Shown one piece after another: positions 33,372 through 64,000 of a stretch of DNA of 64,000 nucleotides (its first letter is position 1; each line of letters opens with the position of its first letter). Origin of the DNA: Patescibacteria group bacterium (GTDB taxonomy: Bacteria > Patescibacteriota > JACMRA01); contig JBCDGH010000001.1 of the NCBI GenBank assembly GCA_038751365.1, forward strand, positions 2,851 to 66,850, read 5' to 3'. The notes beneath the pieces are model-generated. The model was not told where the DNA came from. It did not search any database and saw nothing but the letters and a program-made list of their open reading frames with translations. The position numbers and the translations under genes are program-made.

Positions 33372-34499
33372 TTGGAAATTTTAGAAAACGGAGATAGTAA
33401 AAAGTTTCTAGAAGTTTCAAAAAGAATGCTCGATTTAACAAATCAATTCGACATTTCATTTTTTGAAGCTATAAATAAAGGCTTAACTGATTCCGATTCA
33501 CTTAATAGGTGGATATTTTCGCTTGATCCAAGTTATAATAATTTGGTAATATGGTTTGCTCCAGTAATGCTCAATAATTCGATTAAATATGTTTGGATGG
33601 TTGGTAAATTTGATAGAGAAGTGCTTACTGTACGTAAAATGATAGATAACGCTTATCCAAAATTTAAATATAGTAGCTTACTTAGCTGCCCTGTTTTACC
33701 TCCATATCTAGGATATGTATCTACTATTGCAACCTCAACTTGGCAAGAAACATTAGATACAACAGGATCTGGAGAAGATTTTGCGATATTTCAAGTTTCT
33801 TACAACGGTGCAGACGATAGAAAAGATATAGACCAACTTATGGTTTTGAATTCTAAGTACTTAGTTTCATCAATTCTTGACACAGAAACAGCATTAACAA
33901 AAGTTTGTGATGAAAGCACGTTAGACTACATAAAGACAAGCGTGTTTCCAAGACTTAACTTGTTAACTAAACTGCATACTGAACTTCATAACATTGCTCA
34001 CTTTTGTGGAGATTGGATTTTTGACGAAACAAAGGATATTCACGAATACGAGGCAATAGAGGAGTACAGAGCTTGCTTAGGTGCCATTTTTTTATCGAAA
34101 TATACTAGTCTAGATAAAGATACTCGTATTGCATTCGCAGTTCTTGTTGTAATAACTCGCATTTTTAAATATGGACTAGAAGGTATAAACAATACCGAGA
34201 AAACTAGACAAGTAATTCGAGAAATTACTGTAGCTATTTTCTTTTTGGAAGACTTATTGCTGAGTAAATCAATTGAGATAACTTTGCAAGGTAAAGGTGA
34301 GGTTCGTTTTAGTATAAACTTAGAACTACTATTGGATAGTATAGACCAATCACTGAACAAAATATGCAAATATGAAAGTGAAAACAAGGCTATAGGAAAA
34401 TCGGCGCTGGTACGTTTTGCAGTTAATGAGTACTCTCGAGTTTATCCAAACAAACAGCTATCCGAAAAAGCTTATAGTTTGTACAAAAAAATTTCTTGA
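33372..34499 (+). CDS. Hypothetical protein (375 aa)
   Basis: Long ORF. The start is uncertain: TTG at 33372 or ATG at 33426. No recognised domain. Confidence 0.5.
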   Translation: MEILENGDSKKFLEVSKRMLDLTNQFDISFFEAINKGLTDSDSLNRWIFSLDPSYNNLVIWFAPVMLNNSIKYVWMVGKFDREVLTVRKMIDNAYPKFKYSSLLSCPVLPPYLGYVSTIATSTWQETLDTTGSGEDFAIFQVSYNGADDRKDIDQLMVLNSKYLVSSILDTETALTKVCDESTLDYIKTSVFPRLNLLTKLHTELHNIAHFCGDWIFDETKDIHEYEAIEEYRACLGAIFLSKYTSLDKDTRIAFAVLVVITRIFKYGLEGINNTEKTRQVIREITVAIFFLEDLLLSKSIEITLQGKGEVRFSINLELLLDSIDQSLNKICKYESENKAIGKSALVRFAVNEYSRVYPNKQLSEKAYSLYKKIS

Positions 34500-36681: not shown

Positions 36682-37824
36682 TTGGCAGTTAAACTCTTTA
36701 ATGAGTACTGTTGTACTAAAAAACGTTCTAAGCCAAAGAATGAAGTTTATGTTCTGATAAGTGCAGCTTCTCACGAAGAAGGAGAAAATATTGGAAGAAC
36801 ATTAAAATTACTTGAGGAGCAAAATATAAACCAAGATGAATATTTGATAGTTGTATTTTGTAACAAGCCATTCAACGCTATAGACATTACGACTAGCTAT
36901 ATTGATCAAAAAATTTGTAACCTGATTAACATTGGTCATAGTTGGAGTAAAGAAGAGTTACCAATGGTAAACATGGGAAGGGTAAAAAAAGTAAACGCCG
37001 ACTTTGCTATGCTGCTAGCTGCATCTCATAACGCCTTAGATCCAATTTTTATTAGCCTGGATGCGGACATTATAAATTGCTCTAAGTCACTGGTTGAGAC
37101 TTACACTAGAATGTTTAGATCAAATGATCAACCTTTCTCAATTTTAGGTAAAGTTGATTGGGATAAGTATGAAATTAACGATCTCTTTAGGGTTGGTATT
37201 AGAATATTTCAGTACATTGATGCTTTCGATAGACACGCAGGCAGCACCAGCAATAATCTCTTAGCAAAGTTTCCGCGTGTAATTGAGTCCAATGGGTGTA
37301 ATTTTGCATTTAAAGGTTCAGTATATTGCAAAGTAAACGGCTTTGACCCCAAACAAGATTTACAAAATTGTATAGTCGGTTGTGAAGCTGATTTTGGTTA
37401 TCGTTTACAAGATATATACCACCCTTATCAAGCTATGAAATATGGAGGTAAAGGAACTTATGTCGTAACATCAAGTCGCAGAGGTGTAATTACATTCAAT
37501 AATGGGCTTGCTCCACATGAAATGTGGCGTTCTTGGGGAAAGCTTGGTAGTGAAGGTCGAAAATTAGAAATTTTAAAACCTTTCAAGGCAAGCCAAGATC
37601 CTGTTCGATTTCAACTAGAATCAGAGAGGATCTTCAATAGAACAATTTCATCCAATTTTGGTGAAAACTGTCTGACAGGTTCACAAAAAGAAATTTACTC
37701 TGAATTAGTGAAAAAACTAGCTTTGTTAATGGGGTTCAAGGTAGAAACAAAATCTTCATATGTAACAATAGTTAATGTGGATAAGATTCTACAGAGACTT
37801 AATGAGTTATTAATTAGAGAATAA
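36682..37824 (+). CDS. GT2-like glycosyltransferase (putative)
   Basis: VYVLISAASHEEGENIGRTLKLLEEQ...YLIVVFCN and SLDADII (DxD-like). The only in-frame start is the TTG at 36682, so the N-terminus is uncertain. Confidence 0.45.
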   Translation: MAVKLFNEYCCTKKRSKPKNEVYVLISAASHEEGENIGRTLKLLEEQNINQDEYLIVVFCNKPFNAIDITTSYIDQKICNLINIGHSWSKEELPMVNMGRVKKVNADFAMLLAASHNALDPIFISLDADIINCSKSLVETYTRMFRSNDQPFSILGKVDWDKYEINDLFRVGIRIFQYIDAFDRHAGSTSNNLLAKFPRVIESNGCNFAFKGSVYCKVNGFDPKQDLQNCIVGCEADFGYRLQDIYHPYQAMKYGGKGTYVVTSSRRGVITFNNGLAPHEMWRSWGKLGSEGRKLEILKPFKASQDPVRFQLESERIFNRTISSNFGENCLTGSQKEIYSELVKKLALLMGFKVETKSSYVTIVNVDKILQRLNELLIRE

Positions 37825-40848: not shown

Positions 40849-42828
40849 ATGCTTGATTTTTCGGGTATGTCAACAAACTATGGAGCGTCAAATATCACTG
40901 TACTTGAAGGTTTAGAAGCGGTGAGAAAAAGACCTGGAATGTATATCGGAAATACAGGCAAGGAGGGTCTACATAGATGTCTTGGAGAAATTCTGGATAA
41001 CTCTGTAGACGAATATATGGCTGGGCATGCTACTACCATAAAAGTATTAGTACGAAATGACACTTCCATTTTAATTAGTGATGACGGCAGAGGAATACCT
41101 ACAGATATTCATGCCAAAACTGGAAAAAGTGCTGTCGAGACTATAATGACAGTTTTACACGCAGGCGGAAAATTTGACCAGGCTAATTATCAGTTTTCAG
41201 GAGGATTGCACGGTGTAGGCGCTAGTGTAGTTAATGCTTTATCAGAGAAAATGCAGATTTGGGTACTCAGAGATAAAAAAGTACATTACATACCCTTTTC
41301 CAAAGGTAAGGTAACGGCTAAAATGATCGACTTTGAGTCAGATTTATTAGCTAGTAAATTTCCTGAGATTATAGAGCATTTAGTTTGGGACAAGTCAGGC
41401 ACTGTTACTACTTTCTGGCCTGATAAAACTATGTTCGAAACTACATCTTTTAATGTTAAAGAGATTGAAGAGAATCTTAAACAAACTGCTTATCTAAACA
41501 AAGGTATTAAAATTATTTTTGAAGTCGAAGCAGCAGACGGCACCAGTAACTTGCAAGAATTTTGTTACCCTAAAGGTATCTTTACTTTTTTGGAAGATGT
41601 GACTAAAGGTGAAAGCTTACAGACACCAATTATCCACCTAGAAGCTAAAACAGATAACTTTCAGATGGAACTAGCCATGACATACAGCAGTGACTATAAC
41701 GAAAGACTGTTTGCTTTTACTAACGGAATTATCAATCCAGAAGGTGGTGCTCATGTAACCGGTTTTAAATCCGCTTTGACTAAGTTAATCAATAACTATG
41801 CTTCATCCAAGAATTACTTCAAAAAAGACGAAAGATTTACAAGCGATGATCTGAAAGAAGGGGTTAGAGTAGTCTTATCTATTAAGATGACTGATCCACA
41901 GTTTACTTCACAGTCAAAAGTAAAATTAGGTTCAACTATAGCTAGAACAATTACTGACAGGATGGTTACTGAGAGATTAGGTACTTTTTTAGAAGAAAAT
42001 CCTAGTGTGGGAGCTTCTGTAGTACAAAAAGCCCAGCTAGCTATGAAAGCACGCTTGGCAGCTAAGTCTGCACGGGATAATATTCTCAGAAAAGGGGTGT
42101 TAGACAGTATGGCACTACCTGGAAAACTAGCAGATTGTAGTGAAAAAGATCCCGAAAAAAGTGAAATATTTATTGTAGAAGGAGATTCTGCGGGAGGAAG
42201 CGCAAAACAAGGTAGAGATAGAAATACTCAAGCAATTTTACCCCTCAGAGGGAAAGTTTTGAACACAGAAAAGGCAACTTTAGATAGAATCCTTAATTAT
42301 GAAGGCATTAAAAACATGATAATTGCTTTTGGTACTGGTATCGGCGACAAATTTGATATTGATAAATTACGTTATCACAAAATTGTACTGATGACAGATG
42401 CTGATGTAGATGGTGCTCACATAACTACGCTTTTATTAACTTTCTTGTATAGATATATGCCCGTCTTGATCGAGGATGGTTACATTTATATGGCTAGACC
42501 ACCACTTTATAAGATACAATGGGGTAAAAAATTTGAGTACGTTTACTCCGATGTGGAAAAGGAAGCTCTACTTAAACGAGTAAATTCAGCTAATCCGGAT
42601 AAAGACATAAAGTTTGAGATTCAAAGATATAAAGGTTTAGGGGAGATGAACCCCGAGCAACTATGGGAAACCACCATGAACCCAGTTTCAAGAATGTTGT
42701 ACCAAGTTACAGTAGGCGAAGCGGCTATTGCTGATAAAGTATTTGAGGATCTTATGGGAAGCGAAGTAGAACCTAGGAAGAAATTTATTGATGAAAACGC
42801 TATCTTTGCTGATGTAGACATGGTTTAG
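40849..42828 (+). CDS. gyrB: DNA gyrase subunit B
   Basis: LEGLEAVRKRPGMYIG, EILDNSVDE, GGLHGVGASVVNALS, EGDSAGGSAKQGRDR, PLRGKVLN and LMTDADVDGAHI. The start may be the ATG at 40867 instead. Confidence 0.9.
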   Translation: MLDFSGMSTNYGASNITVLEGLEAVRKRPGMYIGNTGKEGLHRCLGEILDNSVDEYMAGHATTIKVLVRNDTSILISDDGRGIPTDIHAKTGKSAVETIMTVLHAGGKFDQANYQFSGGLHGVGASVVNALSEKMQIWVLRDKKVHYIPFSKGKVTAKMIDFESDLLASKFPEIIEHLVWDKSGTVTTFWPDKTMFETTSFNVKEIEENLKQTAYLNKGIKIIFEVEAADGTSNLQEFCYPKGIFTFLEDVTKGESLQTPIIHLEAKTDNFQMELAMTYSSDYNERLFAFTNGIINPEGGAHVTGFKSALTKLINNYASSKNYFKKDERFTSDDLKEGVRVVLSIKMTDPQFTSQSKVKLGSTIARTITDRMVTERLGTFLEENPSVGASVVQKAQLAMKARLAAKSARDNILRKGVLDSMALPGKLADCSEKDPEKSEIFIVEGDSAGGSAKQGRDRNTQAILPLRGKVLNTEKATLDRILNYEGIKNMIIAFGTGIGDKFDIDKLRYHKIVLMTDADVDGAHITTLLLTFLYRYMPVLIEDGYIYMARPPLYKIQWGKKFEYVYSDVEKEALLKRVNSANPDKDIKFEIQRYKGLGEMNPEQLWETTMNPVSRMLYQVTVGEAAIADKVFEDLMGSEVEPRKKFIDENAIFADVDMV

Positions 42829-48971: not shown

Positions 48972-49700
48972 TTAGATATTCTTCCTACCAAAAAAATTAA
49001 AGATATACACTGCATCAGTGTTGTTATTTATGTTGATGGTGTTGTTGATAGTTTCCAGTGAAGCCTGAGTGTAGATTGGCAAAGTAGATGTTGGATTAGG
49101 TATTATCAAACCGGCTATTTCTAGGCTTTTTTCAAGATTGCTTCTAACATCACTCTCCACAACAGTACCGTTGAGAAAAAATTCAGTTTCAATTTTATTA
49201 ATTGTTATTTGCATAGTTTGCTCAGAATCAGAAATAAAACTGCCAAACATAACCGCGTTGACAGTGGGGTACTGGTTATTTACTGCTAAAGCAGGATTAT
49301 TTAGGATTCCTAAGTCAAAACCAGAACCTGTATAAGTAAATGATGTATCATTAGAGATAGATAATCTGCTTTCTGGAAACTGAATATTTGAGTTCAAAAA
49401 GCTTGATTTGACACCAACATATTCGCCATTAAGAGTAGGTTGAACTAAATCAATTTCCGGTGTTGTAACCTCAACTTCAGACTGCTTATTGGTGTAGTCG
49501 ACCTCGGGTGATGATAAGGATTGCTTGAATTCTGAATAGTCCTCAGGCTGAAATTCTTGGGTAGGAAAATTATCAAAAGAAGCCTTAGCTTGAGATTGAT
49601 AGTAGGAAAAAAATATTACCCCAGTTACTACTAAAGTCGACAGTATTGCTGCAAAGGCGAACCAATTCCTACGCCATATTGTTTTATTTAGTAAGTTCAT
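48972..49700 (-). CDS. Membrane-anchored hypothetical protein, paralog of 48207..48914
   Basis: N-terminal TM. The matching segment is GEYVGVKSSFLNSNIQFPESRLSISNDTSFTYTGSGFDLGILN...NNQYPTV. Confidence 0.55.
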   Translation of the reverse strand: MNLLNKTIWRRNWFAFAAILSTLVVTGVIFFSYYQSQAKASFDNFPTQEFQPEDYSEFKQSLSSPEVDYTNKQSEVEVTTPEIDLVQPTLNGEYVGVKSSFLNSNIQFPESRLSISNDTSFTYTGSGFDLGILNNPALAVNNQYPTVNAVMFGSFISDSEQTMQITINKIETEFFLNGTVVESDVRSNLEKSLEIAGLIIPNPTSTLPIYTQASLETINNTININNNTDAVYIFNFFGRKNI

Positions 49701-50061: not shown

Positions 50062-51930
50062 ATGAGCAACAATCAAGTTAATCCTTATAAGGATATAGAA
50101 GAAAAATGGCAGAAGTCTTGGTATGATAACAACATCTACAGAGCAATAGATGATGATACCACAAGAGAGAAAAAATATATATTGTTGGAGTTCCCTTATC
50201 CATCTGGATCGAATCTTCATATAGGTCACTGTTTTCGGTATACCTTACCTGATGTGTACTCTAGGTTTTTGAGGATGAAGGGTTATAATGTGTTATTTCC
50301 GATAGGTTGGGATGCTTTTGGTCTACCTACTGAAGAATATGCTCGAAAGACTGGTATAAATCCAAAATTAGTCACAGAAACAAATGTAAACAATTTCCGA
50401 GACTCGCTTAAAAGTCTTGGATTCGGATTTGATTGGAGTAGAGAGTTTGCGACTTCAGATCCAAGTTATTATAAGTGGACTCAGTGGATATTTGGCGAGC
50501 TTTATAAGAATGGACTGGCTGAGCAAAAGCAAGTTGAGCTATGGTGGTGTCCAGATCTAAACACAGTCCTTGCAAATGAAGAGGTGATTGAGGTAGATGG
50601 TCGAAAAGTTAGTGAAAAAGGTGAGTATCTGGTGCAAAGGAAAAAAATGCTACAGTGGGTTTTAAAAATGCCAGAATATGCTGAGGAATTACTTAATGGT
50701 CTTGAGCAAACCAACTTTCCAGAATCGATTAAAGAAATGCAGCGAAATTGGATTGGTAAGAGTGAAGGTGTCGTGGTCAGATGGCATCTTGCTAAATTTC
50801 AAACTGAGATTACAAATCAGACCCAAGAAGAGATACCTAGTTTTTCCGAAAACCCTGAGCAAATTAATCACGAGTTAGAATTTGGTGAAAGAGGTTTGGC
50901 TATTATAAAAATAAAAGAGATCGGAGAGTTTGTTATATACGATAAAGCTTTAAGGAATGACTTTAGAACTCGATTTCCTGGTGGTCATCTTGATCCAGGT
51001 GAAAACTCGCTTCAGGCGGCTATAAGAGAAGCTAGGGAGGAAACAGGACTGACAAATTTAGAATACTTAGGTTACTTAGGTAGTTCTCACGGATTTTATA
51101 ATTGGGGTGTAGATTCTTCACAAATCATCCATAAATTAGATCATTTTCATTACTTTGAGTGCTCTCTAAAAGACTGGCATGCCCGCAAAGATGGTCAAGA
51201 AAGCCATATTAATTGTTTTCTAGCCTCACCTGATTATGTAAATGAACATGCAGTATCCCAACAGGTTGAATGTTTGAGTAGAATTCCTGAAGTAAAAGCA
51301 AAATTTGAGAAAAATACGCTTAAAACTTTTACTACTAGAGTAGATACTATCTACGCTGCGACATTTTTGATACTAGCTCCTGAGCACCCAATGGCACTTG
51401 AGATAACTTCGCCTGAGCTTAGAGCCCAAGTCAGTGATTATATAAGTAAGTTCAAGAATCAAAGTGAGCTTGATAGGCAAATCAATAAAGATAAAACTGG
51501 AATTTTTACTGGAAATTACGTGATTCACCCACTTACTGGTGATAGAATACCGGTTTGGGTTTCAGATCTAGTAATCGCAGGCTATGGTACAGGGTGTGTT
51601 ATGGCTGATGCTCATGACGAAAGAGATTATGAATTAGCCGAGAAATACGGTATCCCTTTAAGGGAGACTATTAGCCTTGGAGATGATGTAGATAGAGAAT
51701 TTAAGAAAGTAATTGTTGAAGACGGGGTATTGTTTAATTCTGCTGAGTTTTCTGGTCTTAATTCTGTTGAAGCGAGGATAGAAATTACAAAAAAACTACT
51801 CAAAAACGGGTTCGGTAATACTCAAACTAATTACAAGTTTAGAGATTGGGTCTTTTCAAGGCAGCGCTACTGGGGTGAGCCTTTCCCATTTGTATATTCT
51901 AAAGTAGGAAGCAACACTGACTACAATTAA
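50062..51930 (+). CDS. leuS: Leucyl-tRNA synthetase, N-terminal fragment (HIGH half of the catalytic domain plus CP1 editing domain) with an inserted Nudix-like domain
   Basis: PYPSGSNLHIGH, WDAFGLP, QRNWIGKSEG, TTRVDT, GTGCVMADAHDERDYE and SRQRYWGEPFPFVY, followed by 10 aa and TAA. Start set at the ATG at 50062. Confidence 0.85.
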   Translation: MSNNQVNPYKDIEEKWQKSWYDNNIYRAIDDDTTREKKYILLEFPYPSGSNLHIGHCFRYTLPDVYSRFLRMKGYNVLFPIGWDAFGLPTEEYARKTGINPKLVTETNVNNFRDSLKSLGFGFDWSREFATSDPSYYKWTQWIFGELYKNGLAEQKQVELWWCPDLNTVLANEEVIEVDGRKVSEKGEYLVQRKKMLQWVLKMPEYAEELLNGLEQTNFPESIKEMQRNWIGKSEGVVVRWHLAKFQTEITNQTQEEIPSFSENPEQINHELEFGERGLAIIKIKEIGEFVIYDKALRNDFRTRFPGGHLDPGENSLQAAIREAREETGLTNLEYLGYLGSSHGFYNWGVDSSQIIHKLDHFHYFECSLKDWHARKDGQESHINCFLASPDYVNEHAVSQQVECLSRIPEVKAKFEKNTLKTFTTRVDTIYAATFLILAPEHPMALEITSPELRAQVSDYISKFKNQSELDRQINKDKTGIFTGNYVIHPLTGDRIPVWVSDLVIAGYGTGCVMADAHDERDYELAEKYGIPLRETISLGDDVDREFKKVIVEDGVLFNSAEFSGLNSVEARIEITKKLLKNGFGNTQTNYKFRDWVFSRQRYWGEPFPFVYSKVGSNTDYN

Positions 51931-51983
51931 TATTATAGGAAACAAGAGTTTACTTTCAGATAAAGAAAGTGTATGATAATTAG

Positions 51984-52253
51984 TTATTTTTTGGCTTTTA
52001 ATTTATGGTTTGAGGGTTTAATTTCTTGTTTAGATTCTTTATTCTCTTTAGTCCAATTAGTAAGCTCAAGGAATAATTCTTGAAGTCTTTTATATTCTTG
52101 AGGGCTAGATTTTGGATCGATACTCCTAATCTCACTTTTGAGATCACTTAAAATAATAGCTTTAAATCCTTGGTCTGAGTGAGCAAAGGAATTATTACCA
52201 CCTAAAGCATCGGTGATATATTTGATTAACGATGTGATTTCAGATCCAGGCAT
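51984..52253 (-). CDS. Hypothetical protein (89 aa)
   Basis: ORF only; located between the two leuS pieces on the opposite strand. Confidence 0.35.
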   Translation of the reverse strand: MPGSEITSLIKYITDALGGNNSFAHSDQGFKAIILSDLKSEIRSIDPKSSPQEYKRLQELFLELTNWTKENKESKQEIKPSNHKLKAKK

Positions 52254-52420
52254 ATTTTTGTTTTGGTGTTTTTTATCTGCTTGGATAAATAGTATATTAT
52301 ACTATGTAACTTTTAGCAACAAACTTTTGTTGATTATTCAGATGGGCTTAAAAATAATCACAACACGTGTTTTATCGTTTTTTCTGGACATTATGCAATC
52401 TATTCAAGTATAGATTTTTT

Positions 52421-53044
52421 ATGAAAATTTCAATTATTTGTTCAAGCCATAGAATCGCTTCTCAATCTAGTAAAGTAAGTTCGTTTCTAGAAAATATTTT
52501 AAAAAATAACAGTGTAGAAACTTACCTACTCGAACTCGCCAAAACTCCTTTAGCCTTTGCATACGCTGACGGTTATGCGGATAGCAACTACTCAAAAAAA
52601 ACAGAGGAACTCTTAAACCAAATTTTACCTCAGTTGGATAGTTCTCAAGGATTCGTATTTGTTGTTCCTGAGTGGTCAGGTATGGCTACGCCCATGTTAA
52701 AGAACCTAATCTTACATTTAAATCACGAATTAGCCCACAAGCCAATACTACTAGTTTCGATATCAGCTAGTCGTGGAGGAGCTTTTCCTATTGCAGAATT
52801 ACGCCTCTCAGGCTACAAGAATGCGCTATATAATATAATCCCAGAGCATTTGATTATTAGAAATGTTAATGATGTTCTTAATAGTAGCGAAATCAATGAG
52901 CAAAAATACGGTCGTGCAGATACTTTTATCAAAAAAAGAATTAACTTTGCTTTAGATTTGCTTTTAAAGTATTCAAGGGCTCTAGAAATAGTTAGAGAGG
53001 ATGGTCTACCTTTATTTGAGTTAAGTGAAAATGGAATGTCTTAA
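52421..53044 (+). CDS. NAD(P)H-dependent FMN reductase-like flavoprotein
   Basis: MKISIICSSHRIASQSSKV.., VFVVPEWSGMATPMLKNLILHL and KPILLVSISASRGGAFPIAELRL fit the FMN_red pattern. Start moved to the ATG at 52421. Confidence 0.6.
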   Translation: MKISIICSSHRIASQSSKVSSFLENILKNNSVETYLLELAKTPLAFAYADGYADSNYSKKTEELLNQILPQLDSSQGFVFVVPEWSGMATPMLKNLILHLNHELAHKPILLVSISASRGGAFPIAELRLSGYKNALYNIIPEHLIIRNVNDVLNSSEINEQKYGRADTFIKKRINFALDLLLKYSRALEIVREDGLPLFELSENGMS

Positions 53045-53167
53045 GATTTGTAAACAAGTTACTTACTTTTAAAGATTATTTGTGTTGATGGTTGGAAGTG
53101 TAGATGGTATATTTGATTATATATCAAAGATAATCTAAAATTATTAGAATCAGGTTAAAAATAATCG

Positions 53168-53404
53168 ATGGAAAATAAAAATAAAAAGCTAGTTCTGAGA
53201 AAAGAAAAGCCCTTGAGAAGGTCTAAGTTTCATGATGTAATCATTAGTTACTTAGCTAAAGAAATGGCTAATCTTAATATTCATTCTAAAGGAGGTGCTA
53301 CAGCTAACAAAACCTCAGTCGAAGATATAAAGCTAATTAGTGATTTTAAACCCAGTCTAGATTTGCTTGATACATTAAAGCGATTAAAAGATACTTCCAG
53401 TTAG
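53168..53404 (+). CDS. Hypothetical basic protein (78 aa)
   Basis: ORF only. Confidence 0.3.
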   Translation: MENKNKKLVLRKEKPLRRSKFHDVIISYLAKEMANLNIHSKGGATANKTSVEDIKLISDFKPSLDLLDTLKRLKDTSS

Positions 53405-53514
53405 CTTAATAAGTAGAATTTTTGATATTTAAATACAAAATACAGTTCAGATTTAGGGTTTGACTTTATTGGAAAGTATTACTAGGTTTGGATAATAGTT
53501 AAATCAAATTAATT

Positions 53515-54681
53515 GTGTCTAAATCTAAAATTGAAGCTAAGAAAACAACTAAAATTAATGAAGAGTCTTATCTAATTAAATTATTAGAGAGAGATGAACT
53601 CCCTTTAGAACTCCCTGATATCGAAAATTTTGAACCTTCAGCAGATGGTAAATCTCCCTTAGCAAAGACTGATTGGGTAGTTATTAAAGATGAAGAGGGT
53701 AGAAAAATTGGTATGCACGAGGCAGATACTATGCCAACTTGGGCAGGCTCTAGCTGGTATCACTTGAGATTTACAGATCCTAAGAATTCTTCTGAGTTCG
53801 CTTCTAAACAAAAGCTACAATACTGGCTCCCAGTGGATCATTACTTTGGTGGTAGTGAGCATACTACAGTTCATTTACTATATTCACGGTTTTGGCATAA
53901 GGTTTTGTATGAGCTTGGTTATGTAACGACTCCAGAACCTTTTCAGAAACGTACAAACGGCGGTGTTCTACTGGCTAGTGACGGAACTAAAATGAGTAAG
54001 TCTAAGGGTAATGTAATTAATCCAAAAGATAAATTAGATATCGTTGGTGCGGATGCTTTGAGACTCTATATTAGTTTCATTGGTCCATATGAGGCTACTG
54101 TTTCTTGGCAAGATGGTGGTTTGATCGCCTGTAAAAAGCTTGTCGATAGCCTATTTAGATTGTATGGAAAAGTTGATAAGTCGAATGCTAGTGATAGTGA
54201 CAAGAAAACTCTAGTTATTTACAATAAGATGTTGAAAAAAGTTACTGAATTGTATGAGAATCAGAAAATCAACGTGGTAGTAGCTGAAATCATGACCTTT
54301 GTGAATCATCTTAAGTCGATTGATGTTATTTCAGGTAGTGTTTGGTTAGGATTACTTCAAGTATTAGCACCATTAGCTCCTCATATAACAGAAGAACTGT
54401 GGTATAGATTCCATGAAGAGTATGATCATGAAGACTACACCAAATCTATACATTTGAGCTCTTGGCCTGAATATAATGCTAACTTAGTCAAAGATGAAGT
54501 GGTAACAATTGCTGTTCAGATAAATAGTAAGGTTAGAACAACTTTTGAGGCTCAAGCTGATACAGACGACGATGCTCTATTCAATCAAGCTAAAGAGGTA
54601 GCTCAAAAATGGCTTGAGGGAAAAAATATCAAATTCTTTAAAGTCGTTAAGAACAAGTTAATTAGTATTGTTGCTGATTGA
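53515..54681 (+). CDS. leuS: Leucyl-tRNA synthetase, C-terminal fragment (KMSKS half of the catalytic domain plus anticodon-binding and C-terminal domains)
   Basis: LPLELPD, DTMPTWAGSSWYHLRF, WLPVDHYFGGSEHTTVHLLYSRFWH and KMSKSKGNVINP. GTG start at 53515; in-frame TAA at 53500-53502. Confidence 0.85.
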   Translation: MSKSKIEAKKTTKINEESYLIKLLERDELPLELPDIENFEPSADGKSPLAKTDWVVIKDEEGRKIGMHEADTMPTWAGSSWYHLRFTDPKNSSEFASKQKLQYWLPVDHYFGGSEHTTVHLLYSRFWHKVLYELGYVTTPEPFQKRTNGGVLLASDGTKMSKSKGNVINPKDKLDIVGADALRLYISFIGPYEATVSWQDGGLIACKKLVDSLFRLYGKVDKSNASDSDKKTLVIYNKMLKKVTELYENQKINVVVAEIMTFVNHLKSIDVISGSVWLGLLQVLAPLAPHITEELWYRFHEEYDHEDYTKSIHLSSWPEYNANLVKDEVVTIAVQINSKVRTTFEAQADTDDDALFNQAKEVAQKWLEGKNIKFFKVVKNKLISIVAD

Positions 54682-56213: not shown

Positions 56214-56228
56214 TATACCCTAAGATTT

Positions 56229-56300
56229 TAGTTTATCTAGCCGCAAATAGTGTTTGAATATGTGATGAAGATATGATTTAAACAAACAAATTCTGAGTAT
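56229..56300. repeat. Left copy of an imperfect direct repeat flanking the AbiE pair
   Basis: 56229-56284 aligns without gaps to 57788-57843 with 42 of 56 identical positions (hand count). Shared blocks are TTATCTAGC and GATTTAAACA at identical 42-nt spacing, followed by ATTC..AGTAT. Confidence 0.6.
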
Positions 56301-56323
56301 TATGTTGCAGATGAGGACAAAGG

Positions 56324-56352
56324 TTGACAAGTTTGACAATATACTTCATAAT
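56324..56352 (+). promoter_or_regulatory. Candidate sigma-70 promoter for the AbiEi/AbiEii pair (TTGACA-N17-CATAAT)
   Basis: The -35 box is at 56324-56329 and the -10 box at 56347-56352, about 30 nt upstream of the ATG at 56384. Confidence 0.4.
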
Positions 56353-56383: not shown

Positions 56384-56956
56384 ATGCAAAGAGATAAACT
56401 AGAACTTCTTTTAGAAAAAACTCAAACCGTCTTTGACATTAAGGAGTTGGCAGCGGCTTGGGATTATTTAGATTACAAAAAAGTAAAAGAACTTGCAAGA
56501 TACTATAGTGGCAAACAAAAACTACTCAGAGTAGCTCACGGTTTGTACTCCACCACCGACAAGCCAAAAATTCTAGAAGTAGCTCAAAAACTACAAACTC
56601 CTTCATATATTACTTACCACACAGCCTTAAGTATCCACGGTATCAATTTTCAGTTTTATTCCAATATTCATTGTTTTTCCAAACGAAAAAAGGAGGTGGT
56701 GGTCTTGGGGCAAAAAATCATCTATCATCAAACAAAACTAGAAACTTTATTTAATCCACTTGGTATTGAAAAAAAAGAGGGTTACTATCTAGCCTCTCTC
56801 GAGCGATCAATATGTGATAGTCTGTATCTTTCCCCAGGTCTTGCCTTCGATAACCTAAAAAACATCAATTCTGAAAAGATTCTGGAAATAAGCCAGATTT
56901 ACGGGAATAAAAGGGTGGAAAGGGAAATTTTGAAGATCGTCAAATATTTAGACTAA
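56384..56956 (+). CDS. AbiEi-like antitoxin (type IV TA/abortive infection)
   Basis: Sits immediately upstream of an AbiEii-like gene. It has the size and LLRVAHGLYS-type motif seen in AbiEi proteins. Confidence 0.5.
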   Translation: MQRDKLELLLEKTQTVFDIKELAAAWDYLDYKKVKELARYYSGKQKLLRVAHGLYSTTDKPKILEVAQKLQTPSYITYHTALSIHGINFQFYSNIHCFSKRKKEVVVLGQKIIYHQTKLETLFNPLGIEKKEGYYLASLERSICDSLYLSPGLAFDNLKNINSEKILEISQIYGNKRVEREILKIVKYLD

Positions 56957-56991: not shown

Positions 56992-57675
56992 ATGCTCAAC
57001 CAAAAAACTCATGAAACCCATTTACGTAGGCTTTTATCCAGTATTTACTTAAGCAGAGATTTGCAAAATATTTTAGCATTTAAAGGTGGAACTAGCCTAT
57101 ACATGTTTTATAATCTTGATAGATTTTCTACTGATTTAGATTTTAATTGTTTGACTGAAAATTTAGGTGTGGAGACCTTAAATAAAATTTTTCAGGATTA
57201 TCACATTCAAGACTATTACAACAAAAGAAATACTTGGTTTTGGCTACTTTCTTACCAAAAAGCTCAGATGAAAATTAAGGTGGAAGTCAGTAAAAGAGAC
57301 TATCCAGATACCTACGAAACAAAAGATCTGCTTGGTATTCCAATTAAAGTCATGACGAAAGAGTGTATGTTTGCCCACAAGCTTTGCGCCATTACAGATA
57401 GATCAAAACTACAAAACAGAGACTTATATGATACCTTGTTTATGCTCAAAAATAACTTTGAAATAAAGCAGGAAATTATTAAACTTAGAACTGGTAATAC
57501 CTTAAAAGAATATTTAGAGCACCTAATTGAATTCATTCCCAAAAACATTAAAACTAATCATATTTTAGACGGACTTGGAGAAGTGCTTACCGAAAACCAA
57601 AAAGATTGGGCAAAGTCTCAGCTTCTGCCGCTTTTACTTATGGAAATTCAAAATAGGTTGAGAGAAATCTCATAA
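56992..57675 (+). CDS. AbiEii/AbiGii-family nucleotidyltransferase toxin (DUF1814)
   Basis: AFKGGTSLYMFYNLDRFSTDLDF matches the KGGTAL...R.S.DLDF signature. Confidence 0.65.
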   Translation: MLNQKTHETHLRRLLSSIYLSRDLQNILAFKGGTSLYMFYNLDRFSTDLDFNCLTENLGVETLNKIFQDYHIQDYYNKRNTWFWLLSYQKAQMKIKVEVSKRDYPDTYETKDLLGIPIKVMTKECMFAHKLCAITDRSKLQNRDLYDTLFMLKNNFEIKQEIIKLRTGNTLKEYLEHLIEFIPKNIKTNHILDGLGEVLTENQKDWAKSQLLPLLLMEIQNRLREIS

Positions 57676-57894: not shown

Positions 57895-58464
57895 ATGAAC
57901 TATATAACATTTGATATAGAAACTTACAGTCCGTCAAACTCTAAGCGCATAGATACTAACGAATTTAGAGTAACTGTAGTAGGTGCGTATTTTAGTTGGA
58001 TCGATAAATATATTGCTTTTTTAGAAGATGAAGTAAAGGATTTTTTAGATGTTTTGAAAGAGGCGGAGTTAGTGGTCGGATTTAATCATATTTGGTTTGA
58101 TTTGCCAGTTTTGCAGAAATACTCAACGTATAATTTATTCCAACTCACGAACTATGATATAATGGTTGAGTTTGAGAAAAAGGCAGGTTTCAAAGCCAAG
58201 CTTGATGATTTGGCTAAATCTAATTTAGGAGCAAAAAAAACTGACACCTACGAGTCTTACAGTAAATATCATGAACAATGTAAATGGTCTGAGTTAATTG
58301 ATTATTGTATGAATGATGTTAAGCTTACTGAAGATCTGTTTAAAATAATTCGAGGTGGTGGTGAATTGCTGTATGATGATTCATTACAAGTTAAAGAATT
58401 TGTACTCAATCAACCAGTTGGAAAGAAGGTTACTCTCGAAGCTCAGCCAGACAGTATATTCTGA
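57895..58464 (+). CDS. DEDD-type 3'-5' exonuclease (RNase H-like fold)
   Basis: ITFDIETYS (ExoI), GFNHIWFDLPVL (ExoII-like) and YCMNDVKLT (ExoIII-like). Confidence 0.55.
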   Translation: MNYITFDIETYSPSNSKRIDTNEFRVTVVGAYFSWIDKYIAFLEDEVKDFLDVLKEAELVVGFNHIWFDLPVLQKYSTYNLFQLTNYDIMVEFEKKAGFKAKLDDLAKSNLGAKKTDTYESYSKYHEQCKWSELIDYCMNDVKLTEDLFKIIRGGGELLYDDSLQVKEFVLNQPVGKKVTLEAQPDSIF

Positions 58465-58639: not shown

Positions 58640-61600
58640 ATGCCTTACGTAGCCATTCCAAGTAATTTAAAAAATGTAGATTCTGTAAGCTTAGAGCTCC
58701 TGTCTCCCGAAGAGATGTCAAAGATGAGCTATGGTGAAGTTTTAACAGCTGAAACCATCAATTATAGAACAGGTACACCTCAAATGAATGGCTTATTTTG
58801 CCAAGCAATATTTGGACCCATTAAAGATTGGGAGTGTGCATGTGGAAAATATAAGAGGTATCGTTACTCCGGTGTAATCTGTGATAAATGTGGTGTTGAA
58901 GTAACTCATTCCTCTGTACGTAGAGAGCGTATGGGTCATATTACTCTAGCTGCACCTTGTGTTCATCCGTGGTTCTTAAGAGTTATCCCTTCGCGTGTAG
59001 CATTGCTGCTCAATATGAAGGCGGCTGATATAAGCAGAGTCACTTACTTTTCTGCTTACGTTATCACTGAGATTAACGAAGATATCAGGGAGGAATACTT
59101 ATCAAAAATTGAGAAAGAAGCTTTGAATAGAATAAAGACAACCAAATCTGATTACGACAAAAAATTTGATGAACTTTCAAGGCAATATCAGATAGATAAG
59201 TCTAATGGTAAGCATGATCCTGAGCATCTTAAGACAAAATATGAGACTGACAAAGAAATTCTTAAATCTCAGCAAGCTGAAACCGTGTCGCGTATTGAAA
59301 CAATTTCTGAAGTAGCTAAAAAAGAGTTAGCTGCTTTAAACTACTGTGATGTCATAACTGAAGTCATGTATCAAGAGCTAGCTCAGAAGTTCGGACCAAC
59401 TTTCAAGGCAGAGATAGGTGCTGAGGCTATAGAGAGTTTGCTTAAGAAAATTGACTTGGAGGCTTACTATACTGATCTTAAAGATAAAATGATTAATAGT
59501 AAGGGACAAGCCAAAAAGAAATATTCTAAAAGATTTAAGCTTGTAAAAAGTTTCTTACACAACAAGGCTAGACCTGAATGGATGATTCTAAGGAGGGTAA
59601 TGGTCTTACCACCAGATCTTAGACCAATGCTTCAGTTAGACGGTGGTAGATTTGCTGCTTCTGATCTGAATGAACTATATAGAAGGTTGATCAATAGAAA
59701 CAATCGTCTTAGAAAACTGATTCAGATTGGTGCTCCAGAAGTAATTCTTAGAAACGAAAAAAGAATGTTGCAAGAAGCTATAGAGGCTCTAATTGATAAC
59801 TCTGCTAGAGGTGGAAGACAGGTTATGGCTTCTACAGGAGCTAAGAGACCTCTCAAGTCTTTAACTGATATTCTTAAAGGTAAGCAGGGAAGATTCAGGC
59901 AGAACCTTCTGGGTAAGCGTGTAGACTATTCAGGGCGTTCGGTGGTAATTATTGGTCCTCATCTCAAATTAGATCAGTGTGGACTACCTAAAGAGATGGC
60001 TTTAGAATTATTCAAACCCTTTTTGATGGGTAGAATAGTTACCAAGTCTGAGCAAGGTCTTCTAAGTGAGGAAAATCAGGCGTTTAACGTTCACTCAGCT
60101 CGTAGATTAATAGAAACCAAAAAGCCAATCGTTTATGATATCTTAGATGAAGTTATCCAAGATAAGTTTGTGCTACTTAACCGCGCTCCTACATTGCATA
60201 GACTATCTTTCATGGCTTTCAAGCCTGTGTTAGTAGAAGGTAAAGCGATTAGGCTGCATCCACTTGTCTGTAAAGCATTTAATGCTGACTTTGACGGTGA
60301 TCAAATGGCTGTTCATCTCCCAATAACGGTTAAAGGACAGGAAGAAGCTAAGCATCTAATGGTTTCCACTAAGAATCTACTGAAGCCTGCTAGTGGTGAG
60401 ATTATAATGATTGGTGACTATCAAGATGTAATGCTTGGAGTGTACTACCTTACTAGAGAGAACGAATTGTCCCAAAAGCCTAAAGTTTATGCTTCTGAAG
60501 GTGAAATGATGATGGCTTTTGATAATGGAAAGATAGGCTTAAACGATTTGGCTAAAGTTAGGATTAGTAAAGGGTTTGAAAAACCTACCGTAATAGAAAC
60601 TACTGCAGGTAGGATTGTATTCAATAGGTGTTTTCCTGAAGATTATAAGTTTATAAATCATACACTATCCAAGAAAGCTTACGGGCAGCTGGTGAATAGT
60701 ACTTTCTTTGATTTGGGTCAGGATATAATGGCTAAATGTTTAGATAAGCTAAAGGATGTTGCTTTTGAGTATGTTACTCGTTCAGGTATTTCGATGTCAT
60801 GTTATGATTTAGTGAGTCCTGATGGTAAGCATGAGCTATTAAGCGAAGCTAGAGATAAAGTAAGTAAAATTCAGGCAATGTACGAAACTAAAGGTTTGTT
60901 GACCGAAAAAGATAGGCATAGGCAGATCGTTAACGTATGGAGGCAAGCTTCTGAAGAAATAGCTAAAAGATCAGAGGAATATCTTGATACTGAAGGCAAT
61001 GCTGGAATGATGATTAAGTCAGGTGCTAAAGGTAATATATCTCAGTTAAACTTGATGGTTGGAATTAGAGGGCTATCTGTAGATGCTGGTGGTAGAACAA
61101 TTGAGCTACCAGCTCAGCACGGATACTTAGAAGGATTGACTGGTCTGGAGTACTTTGTGGGTATGAAAGGGCAGAGAAAAGGTCAGGCTGATCTCGTGTT
61201 GAAGACTGCGGATGCTGGGTATTTGACTAGAAGATTAGTTGATATTGCTCAGAATATGATTATCATGGCTGATGACTGTGGTACTCAGGAAGGTATTCTG
61301 TACACCAAAGAAAATGATAACAAGATGGGTAAGACTATGCTTGAAAGGGTCTATGGTAGATACCTACTAAAAGACGTAGAAGATGTTAATGGGAAGGTGG
61401 TAGCTCACAAAGGTGCGTTACTAGATAGGCAACTGATTTCAGAATTAGAGAATTACGATATCGAACAGTTGTGGATAAGAAGTTCTACAAAATGCAATCT
61501 ACCTAGAGGTATATGTCAGAAATGCTATGGTATTGACTTTAGTACTCATCAACCAGTTAAACTAGGTATCACTGTGGGTATAATAGCTGCTCAAAGTCTT

Positions 61601-62599
61601 GGAGAACCAAGTACTCAGTTAACAATCAGCTCTAAGCACAGCTATGGTGTAGTTACTAAGTCAGATATTACTACAGGTTTACCACGTGTAGAAGAAATAT
61701 TTGAGGCTAGAGTACCAAAGTATATCGCACCCATGGTTACCGTTGATGGTGTCGTTGAAAAAGTAACTGGAAATATCGATGATGGATACGAAGTTACTAT
61801 ATCAAGTAAAGATTCAGTATATAATTTTGATTATAATGCTCAGAGTGATAATTTACTTGTTGACGAGGGTGCTGAGGTAACTAACAAAGATACTTTATTT
61901 ATTCAGTCTACTGGTGAAGCTGTAATGGCAAACGTCAAAGGCAAATTAGAAACTGTTGGGAATCAATTAGTAGTTAGGCAAACTGCTCCAGAAGTAGTTA
62001 CTTACAAGACTATTCCGGGGGTGTCAGCAATTGTGAAAGAGGGTGATAAGGTTAAAAGAGGTCAAGCGGTTGCCGAAGGTGCTCTAGATTTACAGAGCTT
62101 ATTAGACCTTGTAGGGTTGGATTCGTTGCAAGAGTATGTTATTAGGCAATTAACTGATATTTATGTATCTAATGGTATTACAGTTAATGAAAAACATATT
62201 GAAGTCATTATCAAGCAGATGTGCAGTAGGGTACAGATCGTTGATCCTGGCGATAGTGACTTTATCAATGGAGATCTTATTGGTTACTCAGTAATTGCTA
62301 CTCAAAATAAGCATCTTGCTAAGCATGACAGAAAGCTTATTTCTTTCAAGAGAGTTGTTACCGGAATTTCTAAAGCTTCGCTCTCTACAGAATCATTCCT
62401 ATCAGCTGCTTCATTCCAGGAAACTGCCAGAGTATTGGTAGAAGCTGTAATTAGTGGTCGACGGGATAATCTTCTTGGTCTAAAAGAAAATGTGATTCTT
62501 GGACAGCTAATTCCTGCTGGAACAGGTTTTGATGAGAATAAAGTTCTTCAAGCAGAATTACAAGAGGAGTTTGAAGAGCTGGAAGTAATTGACGACTAG
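58640..62599 (+). CDS. rpoC: DNA-directed RNA polymerase subunit beta'
   Basis: Zn-binding CACGKY..CDKCGVEV, NADFDGDQMAVHLP (catalytic triad), and bridge-helix and trigger-loop regions. It is an uninterrupted 1319 aa. Confidence 0.95.
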   Translation: MPYVAIPSNLKNVDSVSLELLSPEEMSKMSYGEVLTAETINYRTGTPQMNGLFCQAIFGPIKDWECACGKYKRYRYSGVICDKCGVEVTHSSVRRERMGHITLAAPCVHPWFLRVIPSRVALLLNMKAADISRVTYFSAYVITEINEDIREEYLSKIEKEALNRIKTTKSDYDKKFDELSRQYQIDKSNGKHDPEHLKTKYETDKEILKSQQAETVSRIETISEVAKKELAALNYCDVITEVMYQELAQKFGPTFKAEIGAEAIESLLKKIDLEAYYTDLKDKMINSKGQAKKKYSKRFKLVKSFLHNKARPEWMILRRVMVLPPDLRPMLQLDGGRFAASDLNELYRRLINRNNRLRKLIQIGAPEVILRNEKRMLQEAIEALIDNSARGGRQVMASTGAKRPLKSLTDILKGKQGRFRQNLLGKRVDYSGRSVVIIGPHLKLDQCGLPKEMALELFKPFLMGRIVTKSEQGLLSEENQAFNVHSARRLIETKKPIVYDILDEVIQDKFVLLNRAPTLHRLSFMAFKPVLVEGKAIRLHPLVCKAFNADFDGDQMAVHLPITVKGQEEAKHLMVSTKNLLKPASGEIIMIGDYQDVMLGVYYLTRENELSQKPKVYASEGEMMMAFDNGKIGLNDLAKVRISKGFEKPTVIETTAGRIVFNRCFPEDYKFINHTLSKKAYGQLVNSTFFDLGQDIMAKCLDKLKDVAFEYVTRSGISMSCYDLVSPDGKHELLSEARDKVSKIQAMYETKGLLTEKDRHRQIVNVWRQASEEIAKRSEEYLDTEGNAGMMIKSGAKGNISQLNLMVGIRGLSVDAGGRTIELPAQHGYLEGLTGLEYFVGMKGQRKGQADLVLKTADAGYLTRRLVDIAQNMIIMADDCGTQEGILYTKENDNKMGKTMLERVYGRYLLKDVEDVNGKVVAHKGALLDRQLISELENYDIEQLWIRSSTKCNLPRGICQKCYGIDFSTHQPVKLGITVGIIAAQSLGEPSTQLTISSKHSYGVVTKSDITTGLPRVEEIFEARVPKYIAPMVTVDGVVEKVTGNIDDGYEVTISSKDSVYNFDYNAQSDNLLVDEGAEVTNKDTLFIQSTGEAVMANVKGKLETVGNQLVVRQTAPEVVTYKTIPGVSAIVKEGDKVKRGQAVAEGALDLQSLLDLVGLDSLQEYVIRQLTDIYVSNGITVNEKHIEVIIKQMCSRVQIVDPGDSDFINGDLIGYSVIATQNKHLAKHDRKLISFKRVVTGISKASLSTESFLSAASFQETARVLVEAVISGRRDNLLGLKENVILGQLIPAGTGFDENKVLQAELQEEFEELEVIDD

Positions 62600-62831: not shown

Positions 62832-64000
62832 CTATTTAACTACATTAACTTTTCCGATATTCTTTCTAGATTTATATAGTAAATAAATACTTCCGCTGAT
62901 TAAGGAGCTTACTACCAATATAAAGAAAGTTGCTACTCCGCCTGAGCGTGCAGTTGTAGGGGAGTTGACTGTATCTGCAGTTACTACAAATGTAGATGCA
63001 GGAGGGATGGTAGCTGTATACTTGCTACTACCTAAACTAGTCACATTGGTTTCTACTCCTGGAGAGTCACAACTGTAGGCTTTTACGTTTGTTACGTTAT
63101 CTGAAAGTGAGAAAGTAATCTTAACATCTTTTATTTTGGACTTATTTGCTCCAAAGTCAAAGCTAGTAGCTAGTCTACGGACTCCTGTGACGTTTGAAGT
63201 ACAAGTACCATTAGAATCTAGTAAATTATAAGATATGTTACCATTACTAATCTGATCTTGCAAGGTTATTTCGAATTTTGATATACCGCCTACTGGGTTT
63301 TCAATAGTTTTTGTATCGCCTGCGTTACCAGAAATAACGTATGATTTAGTGGTATTAGTAAGGGTATTGTTTGATGAAGTGTTAGAAGAGCTGCTTGAGG
63401 ATGAAGAACTTGCTGATGAGCTAGAATTAGCGTTAGTATTACTAGTTGAGCTGGATGTTGTAGATGAAGTTGTACTGGTATCACTGCTTGTACTGCTAGA
63501 ACTGCTATCATTACCACTAGTACTTCCTGATGTGGTAGATGTATTGTTGATTAATAGGCTGGCTGTAGGCGAACTTCCTAATGATGTCGGAACTTCCTTA
63601 GCACCAGCTGAACTTCCAGTAGTTGGTACATTGGCACAAGAAAGTTTGGCTGAAGATGTATTATTATCGTTAATAGTGCAGTTTGGGGAGACTGTAGAAT
63701 CTGGCACTGTGACAGTTAAGCCTGTTGTTGGAAGGGAGTAACTATTATTAGAATCTCCAGTAAGTGGGTAGTTACAAGTTGTTACAGCCCCTACATCTAC
63801 CGGGTCACAAGTTCCCATAACTAAATTAATTGCTGAAATAATTGTCGGGTCAGGTGTTGTGTCTAAAGCATTAATCTGTAGTTGTGCTGTAGGCGAATTT
63901 CCTAATGATGTTGGAACTTCCTTAGCGCCAGCTGAACTTCCAGTAGTTGGTACATTGGCACATACAATCTTTGTGTTATCGGGTAGTGTACAATTTGGAG
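62832..64000 (-). CDS. Repetitive Ser/Thr-rich surface protein with C-terminal TM anchor; 5' end lies beyond the right window edge
   Basis: The minus-strand frame stays open from 63998 through the M at 63818 (hand translation PNCTLPDNTKIVCANVPTTGSSAGAKEVPTSLGNSPTAQLQIN...). It has a poly-S/T stretch and ends GGVATFFILVVSSLISGSIYLLYKSRKNIGKVNVVK. Confidence 0.7.
   Translation of the reverse strand, partial: PNCTLPDNTKIVCANVPTTGSSAGAKEVPTSLGNSPTAQLQINALDTTPDPTIISAINLVMGTCDPVDVGAVTTCNYPLTGDSNNSYSLPTTGLTVTVPDSTVSPNCTINDNNTSSAKLSCANVPTTGSSAGAKEVPTSLGSSPTASLLINNTSTTSGSTSGNDSSSSSTSSDTSTTSSTTSSSTSNTNANSSSSASSSSSSSSSNTSSNNTLTNTTKSYVISGNAGDTKTIENPVGGISKFEITLQDQISNGNISYNLLDSNGTCTSNVTGVRRLATSFDFGANKSKIKDVKITFSLSDNVTNVKAYSCDSPGVETNVTSLGSSKYTATIPPASTFVVTADTVNSPTTARSGGVATFFILVVSSLISGSIYLLYKSRKNIGKVNVVK
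63562..63962 (-). repeat. Intragenic tandem module with 324-bp (108-aa) period
   Basis: The 77-nt cores at 63562-63638 and 63886-63962 differ at only 3 positions (hand count). They encode CANVPTTGSSAGAKEVPTSLG.SPTA. Confidence 0.85.

Follow-up and report, generated by a model that had tools for sequence, protein, structure and literature searches.

A probable natural split of leucyl-tRNA synthetase between its Rossmann halves in Patescibacteria

We analyzed a 64-kb stretch of DNA (the window) from a bacterium of the Patescibacteria, or Candidate Phyla Radiation (CPR), in which the gene for leucyl-tRNA synthetase (LeuRS), leuS, is present as two open reading frames (ORFs), leuS-N and leuS-C, 1,584 bp apart (Table 1). 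The best explanation, to which we give a probability of roughly 0.8, is that the window encodes a naturally split, two-subunit LeuRS of the bacterial type. A LeuRS split between the two halves of the Rossmann fold is conserved and widespread in a CPR lineage. The preliminary description of this DNA had preferred a functional two-piece LeuRS to a dead gene, and that preference is supported by the recurrence of the break, by strong purifying selection, and by the invariance of catalytic and editing residues; we infer activity and dimer formation.

In the assembly that we propose, leuS-N would give the first Rossmann half with its HIGH signature, the CP1 editing domain, and the NUDIX hydrolase that is inserted in this piece. 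From leuS-C would come the second Rossmann half with KMSKS, the anticodon-binding domain, and the C-terminal domain. Transcription of the two genes is most likely separate, and their translation must be. Strand FVYSK, the last in the N-piece, would join TTKI and ESYLIKL, the first strands in the C-piece, to complete a hairpin at the surface, and the Rossmann halves would pack non-covalently into one active site, giving an alpha-beta LeuRS that charges and edits. It is likely that the enzyme works in this way, with the NUDIX domain as an active passenger or partner.

Family profiles placed the two pieces end to end. In Pfam, leuS-N matched positions 1-226 of the 414 in the tRNA-synt_1 profile and the LeuRS editing domain PF13603 (E = 7e-50), while leuS-C matched positions 295-411 of tRNA-synt_1, followed by Anticodon_1. 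With the NCBIfam model leuS_bact (TIGR00396), leuS-N scored 552.7 bits (E = 1.4e-165), which by itself passes the cutoff of 548.4, and leuS-C scored 299 bits (E = 5.8e-89), its best stretch covering profile positions 440-569 of 843. Alignment to structures in the PDB revealed that leuS-N spans Thermus thermophilus LeuRS residues 4-233 and 243-440 and that leuS-C begins at residue 448. Since the Pfam, TIGR00396, and T. thermophilus alignments all run on in order, these comparisons identify the pieces as collinear halves of a bacterial-type LeuRS, far beyond chance. The sequence marks of that family are present, namely the profile match, HIGH and KMSKS, the T-rich motif of CP1, and the editing aspartate. 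No further LeuRS match was found within the window.

The order of domains is conventional apart from one insertion. leuS-N contains the HIGH-bearing first Rossmann half, a ZN1-like region that lacks zinc ligands, and the CP1 editing domain with its NUDIX insert. leuS-C consists of a Lys-rich head, the hairpin strand TTKINEESYLIKLL, LPLELP, the second Rossmann half, KMSKS, Anticodon_1, and the C-terminal domain. The ORF caller extended the start of leuS-N to a TTG at 50053 (50053/50062..51930). For leuS-C, an in-frame stop lies four codons 5′ of the GTG, and a GTG start is also kept in L002, a related locus from JGI. The genetic code in the window is standard, because TGA serves as a stop codon and the longest uninterrupted ORFs reach 1,335 codons; code 25 was rejected on the same grounds. 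A scan for promoters and terminators performed no better than on shuffled sequence in this AT-rich DNA. ORF calls, profiles, and structure alignments confirmed the coordinates and collinearity first given for the two pieces, as well as the absence of internal stops and motif decay. For the content of leuS-N, the preliminary description was right about HIGH, CP1, and the core, and overlooked the NUDIX domain (PF00293, aa 302-369, E = 4.9e-12).

Table 1. Features of the split leuS locus, with positions in the 64-kb window
Feature	Coordinates	Strand	Details
leuS-N (alpha-like)	50062..51930	+	622 aa from ATG; stop TAA
HIGH signature H53-I-G-H56	50218..50229	+	invariant columns H53, G55, H56 in alignment A1
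NUDIX insertion	50782..51318	+	aa ~241-419 (~180 residues); between T. thermophilus residues 233 and 243, CP1 entry
CP1 editing domain PF13603	51307..51798	+	TTRVDT aa 424-429; HDERD aspartates D519, D522
leuS-N C-terminal tail	51859..51930	+	RQRYWGEPFPFVYSKVGSNTDYN and TAA stop; predicted last beta-strand FVYSK
89-aa ORF	51984..52253	-	converges on leuS-N; no family match
NADPH-dependent FMN reductase (FMN_red, PF03358)	52421..53044	+	207 aa from ATG
78-aa ORF	53168..53404	+	no family match; gene status uncertain
leuS-C (beta-like)	53515..54681	+	388 aa; GTG start; stop TGA
KMSKS of leuS-C	53989-54003	+	aa 159-163
Anticodon_1 domain of leuS-C	54199-54567	+

The break corresponds to T. thermophilus residues ~441-447, a short hairpin that follows the RQRYWGxPxP strand at the point where CP1 has returned to the core, ~130 residues before KMSKS. 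It was originally placed there too, between the Rossmann halves and right after the CP1 return. The accompanying statement that the first ~25 residues of leuS-C are non-conserved was not upheld. Behind a Lys-rich decapeptide, residues ~11-25 (the TTKINEESYLIKLL segment, nt 53545-53589) are conserved in every split relative and also in the one-piece relatives of the clade, where the counterparts read RTVDIDGELYQVKLL in protein cluster P0128 and YTEIDGDFYRIKLL in P0005. The spacing from RQRYWG to LPxLP is ~43-69 residues in the clade versus 25-26 in most bacteria. As the N-tail and C-head of the window together make 51 residues, which sits within the spacing of the clade, the break entailed no loss. 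The enzyme lacks the leucine-specific domain: leuS-C reads GGVLLASDGTKMSKS at this point, with ASDG aligned to the GKDG tetrapeptide of Mycoplasma mobile LeuRS.

The same break is present in at least six independent assemblies and ~10 protein clusters (50% identity), recovered from NCBI, JGI, ENA, and Logan data and from different samples. The break recurs at 53-76% amino acid identity. The pattern recurs: the N-piece ends just past RQRYWGEPFPxxYxK and the C-piece begins just before TxIDxxxYxIxLL..LPLELP. Seven distinct N-pieces stop 1-9 residues beyond FP(F/I/V)(E/V)Y.K, with TAA or TAG as the stop codon in five genomes, and at least eight C-pieces begin just before the conserved strand. A comparison of the split point with related genomes, which the preliminary description had proposed, thus found the identical break in L001, L002, L024, L027, L029, and others.

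What lies between the pieces differs among these loci. L002 encodes an N-piece of 620 aa, a minus-strand ORF, FMN_red, a 211-aa ORF, and a C-piece of 386 aa, the two pieces being 76% and 70% identical to those of the window. The flanks of L002 and the window are syntenic, with an NMT1-like gene, an ABC ATPase, and two membrane proteins upstream and an exonuclease and rpoC downstream. L029 (ENA) contains a partial N-piece, a minus-strand ORF, a 190-aa Ser_hydrolase, and a C-piece of 385 aa. L001 (Logan/NCBI, on a 157-kb contig) contains an N-piece of 1046 aa with three NUDIX domains, a minus-strand ORF, a 192-aa Ser_hydrolase, and a C-piece of 383 aa, and L024 (Logan) an N-piece of 850 aa with NUDIX and Ham1, 2.9 kb of minus-strand ORFs, and a C-piece of 428 aa. 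In several split clusters the two genes are >8 kb apart. The C-piece is absent from the 15-kb locus that encodes the 923-aa N-piece of L027 (ENA), and the N-piece is absent within 8 kb of the hydrolase-C genes in L044 (P0282) and L045-L047 (P0279; this protein was found on 11 contigs). L043 (P0009) is a stand-alone fusion of Ser_hydrolase to the C-piece, with a stop directly before its ATG and an upstream neighbor on the opposite strand.

Not every short leuS entry was accepted, and entries that look like a C-half and begin MVHCEKC.. proved unreliable. P0087, which appeared to be a C-half only (start MVHCEKC..), was rejected as a mis-called internal start within a 1042-aa one-piece ORF (L025). 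P0112, P0045, P0102, and P0288 likely have mis-called starts of the same kind and were left out of the split count. C-piece scans of genome and metagenome contigs returned just distant one-piece LeuRS of unrelated phyla, the back-translated patterns being too specific. In a neighbor-joining tree of the C-parts, the window, L002, and L029 grouped at 100%, joined by L001 at 85%; deep nodes were weakly supported. Among the closest relatives, ~10 split and ~5 one-piece clusters are intermingled.

We aligned 29 LeuRS sequences, including the window enzyme and one-piece LeuRS (alignment A1). Besides the HIGH columns in Table 1, the invariant positions are TTRxDT, both HDERD aspartates, and KMSK (the final S nearly so). 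Since HIGH and KMSK are both invariant, the halves are expected still to build one adenylation site. These data bear on the alternative that survives best, namely that the pieces have separate jobs, the N-piece as a trans-editing or NUDIX protein and the C-piece as a tRNA-binding factor, with leucylation left to another enzyme. The pieces do bear extra enzymatic modules, and the isolated editing domain of Aquifex aeolicus LeuRS is reported to edit alone (work cited in the relevant passage of PMC2377443). With the HIGH of the N-piece and the KMSK of the C-piece both kept without exception and no other LeuRS seen in the window, however, we regard separate functions as improbable.

A predicted structure is consistent with one enzyme made from both pieces. 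AlphaFold2 was given an artificial concatenation of leuS-N and leuS-C and an alignment of 28 one-piece homologues. It predicted a canonical LeuRS fold (pTM 0.73), in which the only low-confidence parts were the NUDIX insert, where the alignment was thin, and ~10 residues at the point where the two pieces had been joined. Strands were predicted at 610-614 (FVYSK), 633-636 (TTKI), and 639-645 (ESYLIKL). Against the LeuRS structures of E. coli, N. gonorrhoeae, and T. thermophilus, the model gave target-normalised TM-scores of 0.75-0.84.

Both pieces are under strong purifying selection, judging from their divergence. Between the window and L002, L029, L001, and L024, the proportion of synonymous differences (pS) was 0.70-0.88, which is saturated, in both halves, while that of nonsynonymous differences (pN) stayed at 0.15-0.23 for the closer loci and reached 0.29-0.32 for L024. 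The ratio dN/dS was ~0.11 in the two finite estimates, most pairs giving no figure because dS was saturated. Such values would be difficult to reconcile with a dead leuS that was disrupted by foreign genes and is now decaying while a working one-piece leuS serves the cell from elsewhere. An unrelated FMN reductase and small ORFs between the halves are what such a disruption could leave behind. Yet both ORFs are intact with their catalytic and editing residues invariant, the break is identical across lineages in which pN is just 0.15-0.32 at saturated synonymous divergence, the branches of split forms in the neighbor-joining tree are no longer than those of one-piece relatives, and the window has no other LeuRS match. 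Neither frameshifts or internal stops, nor loss of catalytic residues, nor relaxed selection was found. We therefore consider a dead gene very unlikely.

The gap contains the three unrelated ORFs that were originally described: a minus-strand ORF, an FMN reductase, and an ORF of 78 aa. The 89-aa minus-strand ORF is, on the evidence of its conservation, a real gene, since its equivalent in L002 is 53% identical (E = 1e-31) with a pN of 0.28 versus a pS of 0.81. Among the database matches found for the FMN reductase, 29 of 29 were free-standing proteins of 191-219 aa, and none was fused to LeuRS. No homologue of the 78-aa ORF was detected in related loci. Because an opposite-strand gene lies between the halves, a single mRNA is unlikely, and the halves must be translated independently.

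The content of the gap also speaks against joining of the halves after transcription or translation, whether by an intron, trans-splicing, an intein, or translational bypass. Self-splicing insertions are a known feature of the rRNA genes of CPR genomes, which gives this idea some general appeal. However, Rfam matched no family in 51700-53700, even at E<=1, and no intron family in the window at gathering thresholds, Pfam detected no intein or homing-endonuclease domain in either leuS piece or the gap ORFs, an FMN reductase of the ordinary kind and a conserved gene on the opposite strand occupy the gap, and the partner piece is not within 5-8 kb in L027 or L044-L047. Joining is thus a far-fetched explanation. 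An assembly or sequencing artefact, in which a chimeric contig or frameshifts imitate a split, is the least credible of all: contigs of metagenome-assembled genomes can be chimeric, and one long-read contig (L026) does show leuS and other genes broken by apparent frameshifts, but the same architecture occurs independently in four data sources and different samples, the window and L002 share synteny in their flanks, genes within the gap are conserved between them, and genuine TAA or TAG codons end the N-piece in five genomes.

That contig (L026; P0095, ENA contig_58118) had itself been a candidate for a multi-piece leuS and was rejected. Its leuS, lepA, and ABC ATPase each lie in overlapping, adjacent-frame fragments, which looks like frameshift error. 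It is a warning that a fragmented leuS in a database is not always a natural split.

A repeat search around the gap gave no sign of a mobile element in the form of flanking repeats. A 14-nt inverted match (86%, 51923-51936 / 53503-53516) spans the leuS-N stop and the leuS-C start and is probably due to chance, since the DNA is AT-rich. Two short pairs of direct repeats (52205-52359 and 53096-53166) lie upstream of the starts of FMN_red and the 78-aa ORF and may be promoter-like elements.

Several points weigh against a naturally split, two-subunit LeuRS. Heterodimerisation, aminoacylation, and editing are expectations drawn from sequence and modeling. The AlphaFold model of one fused chain speaks for compatibility with a nicked LeuRS fold, rather than for association of two chains. 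Our search for LeuRS covered the 64-kb window, and an additional intact leuS elsewhere in the genome is possible. The neighbor-joining tree is compatible with one fission or several, and because one-piece forms fall among the split forms, re-fusion is possible. Finally, the GTG of leuS-C has no Shine-Dalgarno sequence. Under a loose definition, however, such a motif precedes just 7 of the 46 ORFs of at least 140 aa in the window. The organism apparently starts translation largely without one, so its lack before leuS-C is uninformative.

How might a two-piece, naturally split leuS have arisen? Comparison of the relatives shows that the hairpin at the break site is enlarged specifically in this clade and forms a hot spot where domains are inserted in frame. 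In L025, the 1042-aa one-piece LeuRS carries a Ser_hydrolase (PF06821) in frame between ...WGEPIPLVHCEKC and ...LPLELP. A HAD domain is in frame at the same site in P0005/L028 and in P0283 (1610 aa), Ham1 and HAD in P0275, and inserts of ~160 aa without a Pfam match in P0080 and P0277. The in-frame inserts and the N-terminal domain of P0009 have homologues in the Ser_hydrolase genes that lie in the gaps of L001 and L029. When 1.84 billion cluster representatives were searched with the head of the C-piece, six more hydrolase-C clusters were recovered (P0276 and P0278-P0282), all of which begin M.P(K/N)(V/I)(I/V)F(I/V)P. In several hydrolase-C clusters, additional NUDIX or HAD inserts separate the catalytic core from the anticodon domain.

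The relatives thus present a series of states: a one-piece enzyme with the hydrolase in frame; an N-piece with a hydrolase-C fusion; an N-piece, a separate hydrolase gene, and a C-piece; other genes in place of the hydrolase, as with the FMN reductase in the window; and unlinked N and C genes. If evolution ran in that direction, fission would have begun at the border of an inserted Ser-hydrolase domain, a proposal for which we put the odds at about even. No remnant of a Ser-hydrolase was detectable in the gap of the window. Much more tentatively, the LeuRS of this clade might be a modular platform, whose hairpin captures, fuses, and splits genes and whose hydrolases are functionally coupled to it, the window being one frame of a cycle of fission and fusion. 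Coupled hydrolases could clear Ap4A, non-cognate adenylates, or mischarged esters, or could sanitise salvaged nucleotides.

The NUDIX insert of leuS-N has an intact Nudix box, GHLDPGENSLQAAIREAREETGL (aa 308-330, nt 50983-51051), that fits G-x5-E-x7-REUXEEXGU. Its best sequence match is the Ap4A hydrolase of A. aeolicus. When the insert was modeled together with relatives using AlphaFold (pLDDT 79), Foldseek matched it to MutT, Ap4A-hydrolase, and RppH folds, and the model identifies it as a generic alpha/beta/alpha NUDIX fold of the MutT/Ap4A-hydrolase/RppH-like kind. At the same CP1-entry site, relatives carry one to three NUDIX domains, NUDIX and Ham1, or Ser_hydrolase. A further NUDIX site lies within the CP1 of relatives, near N-piece aa 538-549, and all Nudix boxes are intact. 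Across the clade, LeuRS reaches 1,610 aa, and at least four internal sites carry NUDIX, Ham1/ITPase, HAD, Ser_hydrolase, or GNAT domains (P0275-P0287). P0284 has a match to an IS200-like Y1_Tnp on the N-terminal side of a LeuRS fragment, a possible clue to the way in which inserts are acquired. The window also encodes a free-standing NUDIX protein of 151 aa at 42845-43300 (+), directly 3′ of gyrB (40849..42828); the genome thus holds both free and leuS-embedded NUDIX genes.

To our knowledge, the LeuRS of Aquifex is the only natural two-subunit LeuRS known, and it has been treated as a relic. The pieces are 622 and 388 aa in the window compared with 634 and 289 aa in Aquifex. A. aeolicus LeuRS is encoded by two genes and forms a non-covalent alpha-beta heterodimer (Xu et al. 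2002 JBC 277:41590; Ma et al. 2006 Biochemistry 45:14809; both as cited in passages of PMC2377443, PMC3643597, and PMC4975002). Like it, the window enzyme is of the bacterial type and comes from two genes, the alpha piece containing HIGH and CP1 and the beta piece the tRNA-binding domains, and we would expect a heterodimer here as well. In Aquifex, the break interrupts a leucine-specific domain of very large size that adjoins KMSKS (PMC3643597). That domain is absent from the window enzyme, in which the break is ~130 residues earlier, in the post-CP1 hairpin, and the preliminary description was correct that the two split sites differ. Because the break is earlier, the beta piece receives the second Rossmann half in full. 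Also unlike Aquifex, the split seen in the window is linked to domain insertions.

Cuts between Rossmann halves have precedents in the laboratory. Isoleucyl-tRNA synthetase (IleRS) and methionyl-tRNA synthetase (MetRS) of E. coli, split in or near CP1, reportedly reassemble from fragments into active enzyme (Shiba and Schimmel 1992; Burbaum and Schimmel 1991). The position of the cut is alike, and reassembly is the mechanism that we propose here; the IleRS and MetRS fragments were laboratory constructs, whereas the split in the window is natural and maintained by evolution. A second independent LeuRS split site would show that class I synthetases break naturally exactly where fragment complementation predicted. 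Natural split synthetase genes are also known, in Nanoarchaeum equitans and as the split pheT of Altiarchaeales (PMC4975002). These resemble the window LeuRS in being clade-shared fissions of an essential translation enzyme, at a poorly conserved and insertion-prone site, in uncultured lineages with small genomes. They differ in the enzyme and the domain of life and in having no inserted catalytic domains.

M. mobile LeuRS (PDB 3ZIU) is the best match of leuS-C among solved structures (E = 2.4e-67). It shares with the window enzyme the absence of the leucine-specific domain, with GKDG there and ASDG here (PMC3643597), but it is a one-piece enzyme without CP1, whereas the window enzyme keeps CP1 and its editing residues. 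For an unrelated catalytic domain within a class Ia synthetase, NCBIfam NF040702 (isoleucine--tRNA ligase, N-acetyltransferase domain-containing) is a precedent. Unlike it, the window clade has NUDIX, Ham1, HAD, and Ser-hydrolase domains at four or more internal LeuRS sites, coupled to gene fission. In the literature that we covered, which is incomplete, we found no LeuRS split at this site and no LeuRS decorated with NUDIX, HAD, Ham1, or Ser-hydrolase in CPR/Patescibacteria.

Recognizing the split leuS corrects public annotation. At NCBI, leuS-C is labelled 'class I tRNA ligase family protein' (MEM1311889.1), and leuS-N was called from an internal GTG alone as a 385-aa 'NUDIX domain-containing protein' (MEM1311885.1). 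With pieces labelled in this way, automated calls of completeness or metabolism may score leuS as missing or duplicated. The split gene could also serve as a phylogenetic marker for a subgroup of Patescibacteria and as a natural system for studying how a split active site assembles. In addition, the break point and the in-frame hydrolase inserts are a concrete case of domain insertion and gene fission or fusion feeding each other.

Further observations concern the genes around leuS. Just upstream of leuS-N, 48207-48914 and 48972-49700 (-) are two ORFs of similar size with hydrophobic N-terminal segments; the corresponding position in L002 is taken by minus-strand ORFs (241 and 244 aa) without a Pfam match. 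Downstream, rpoC (58640..62599) is not preceded by rpoB (window 55233-62599). Upstream of rpoC lie an APH-like kinase gene, an AbiEii toxin gene (56992..57675), and a 3′-5′ exonuclease/RNase_H_2 gene (57895..58464), and the pairing of exonuclease and rpoC is also present in L002. A 190-aa ORF (56384..56956), which has no Pfam match, precedes the AbiEii toxin in the position of an antitoxin.

Elsewhere in the window, a 732-aa ORF at 22861-25059 (+) combines a full sigma-70 with regions 1.1-4 (aa 186-544) and a C-terminal TsaE, the t6A-biosynthesis ATPase (aa 600-700), an unusual RpoD-TsaE fusion. Large ORFs without a Pfam match lie at 30422..33118 (898 aa), 33372..34499, 36682..37824, and 62832..63818. 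The upstream part of the window encodes a lamin-tail-domain protein at 6298-7488 (+), a GIY-YIG protein of 338 aa at 7922-8938 (-), and a double-fasciclin protein at 16728-17768 (-).

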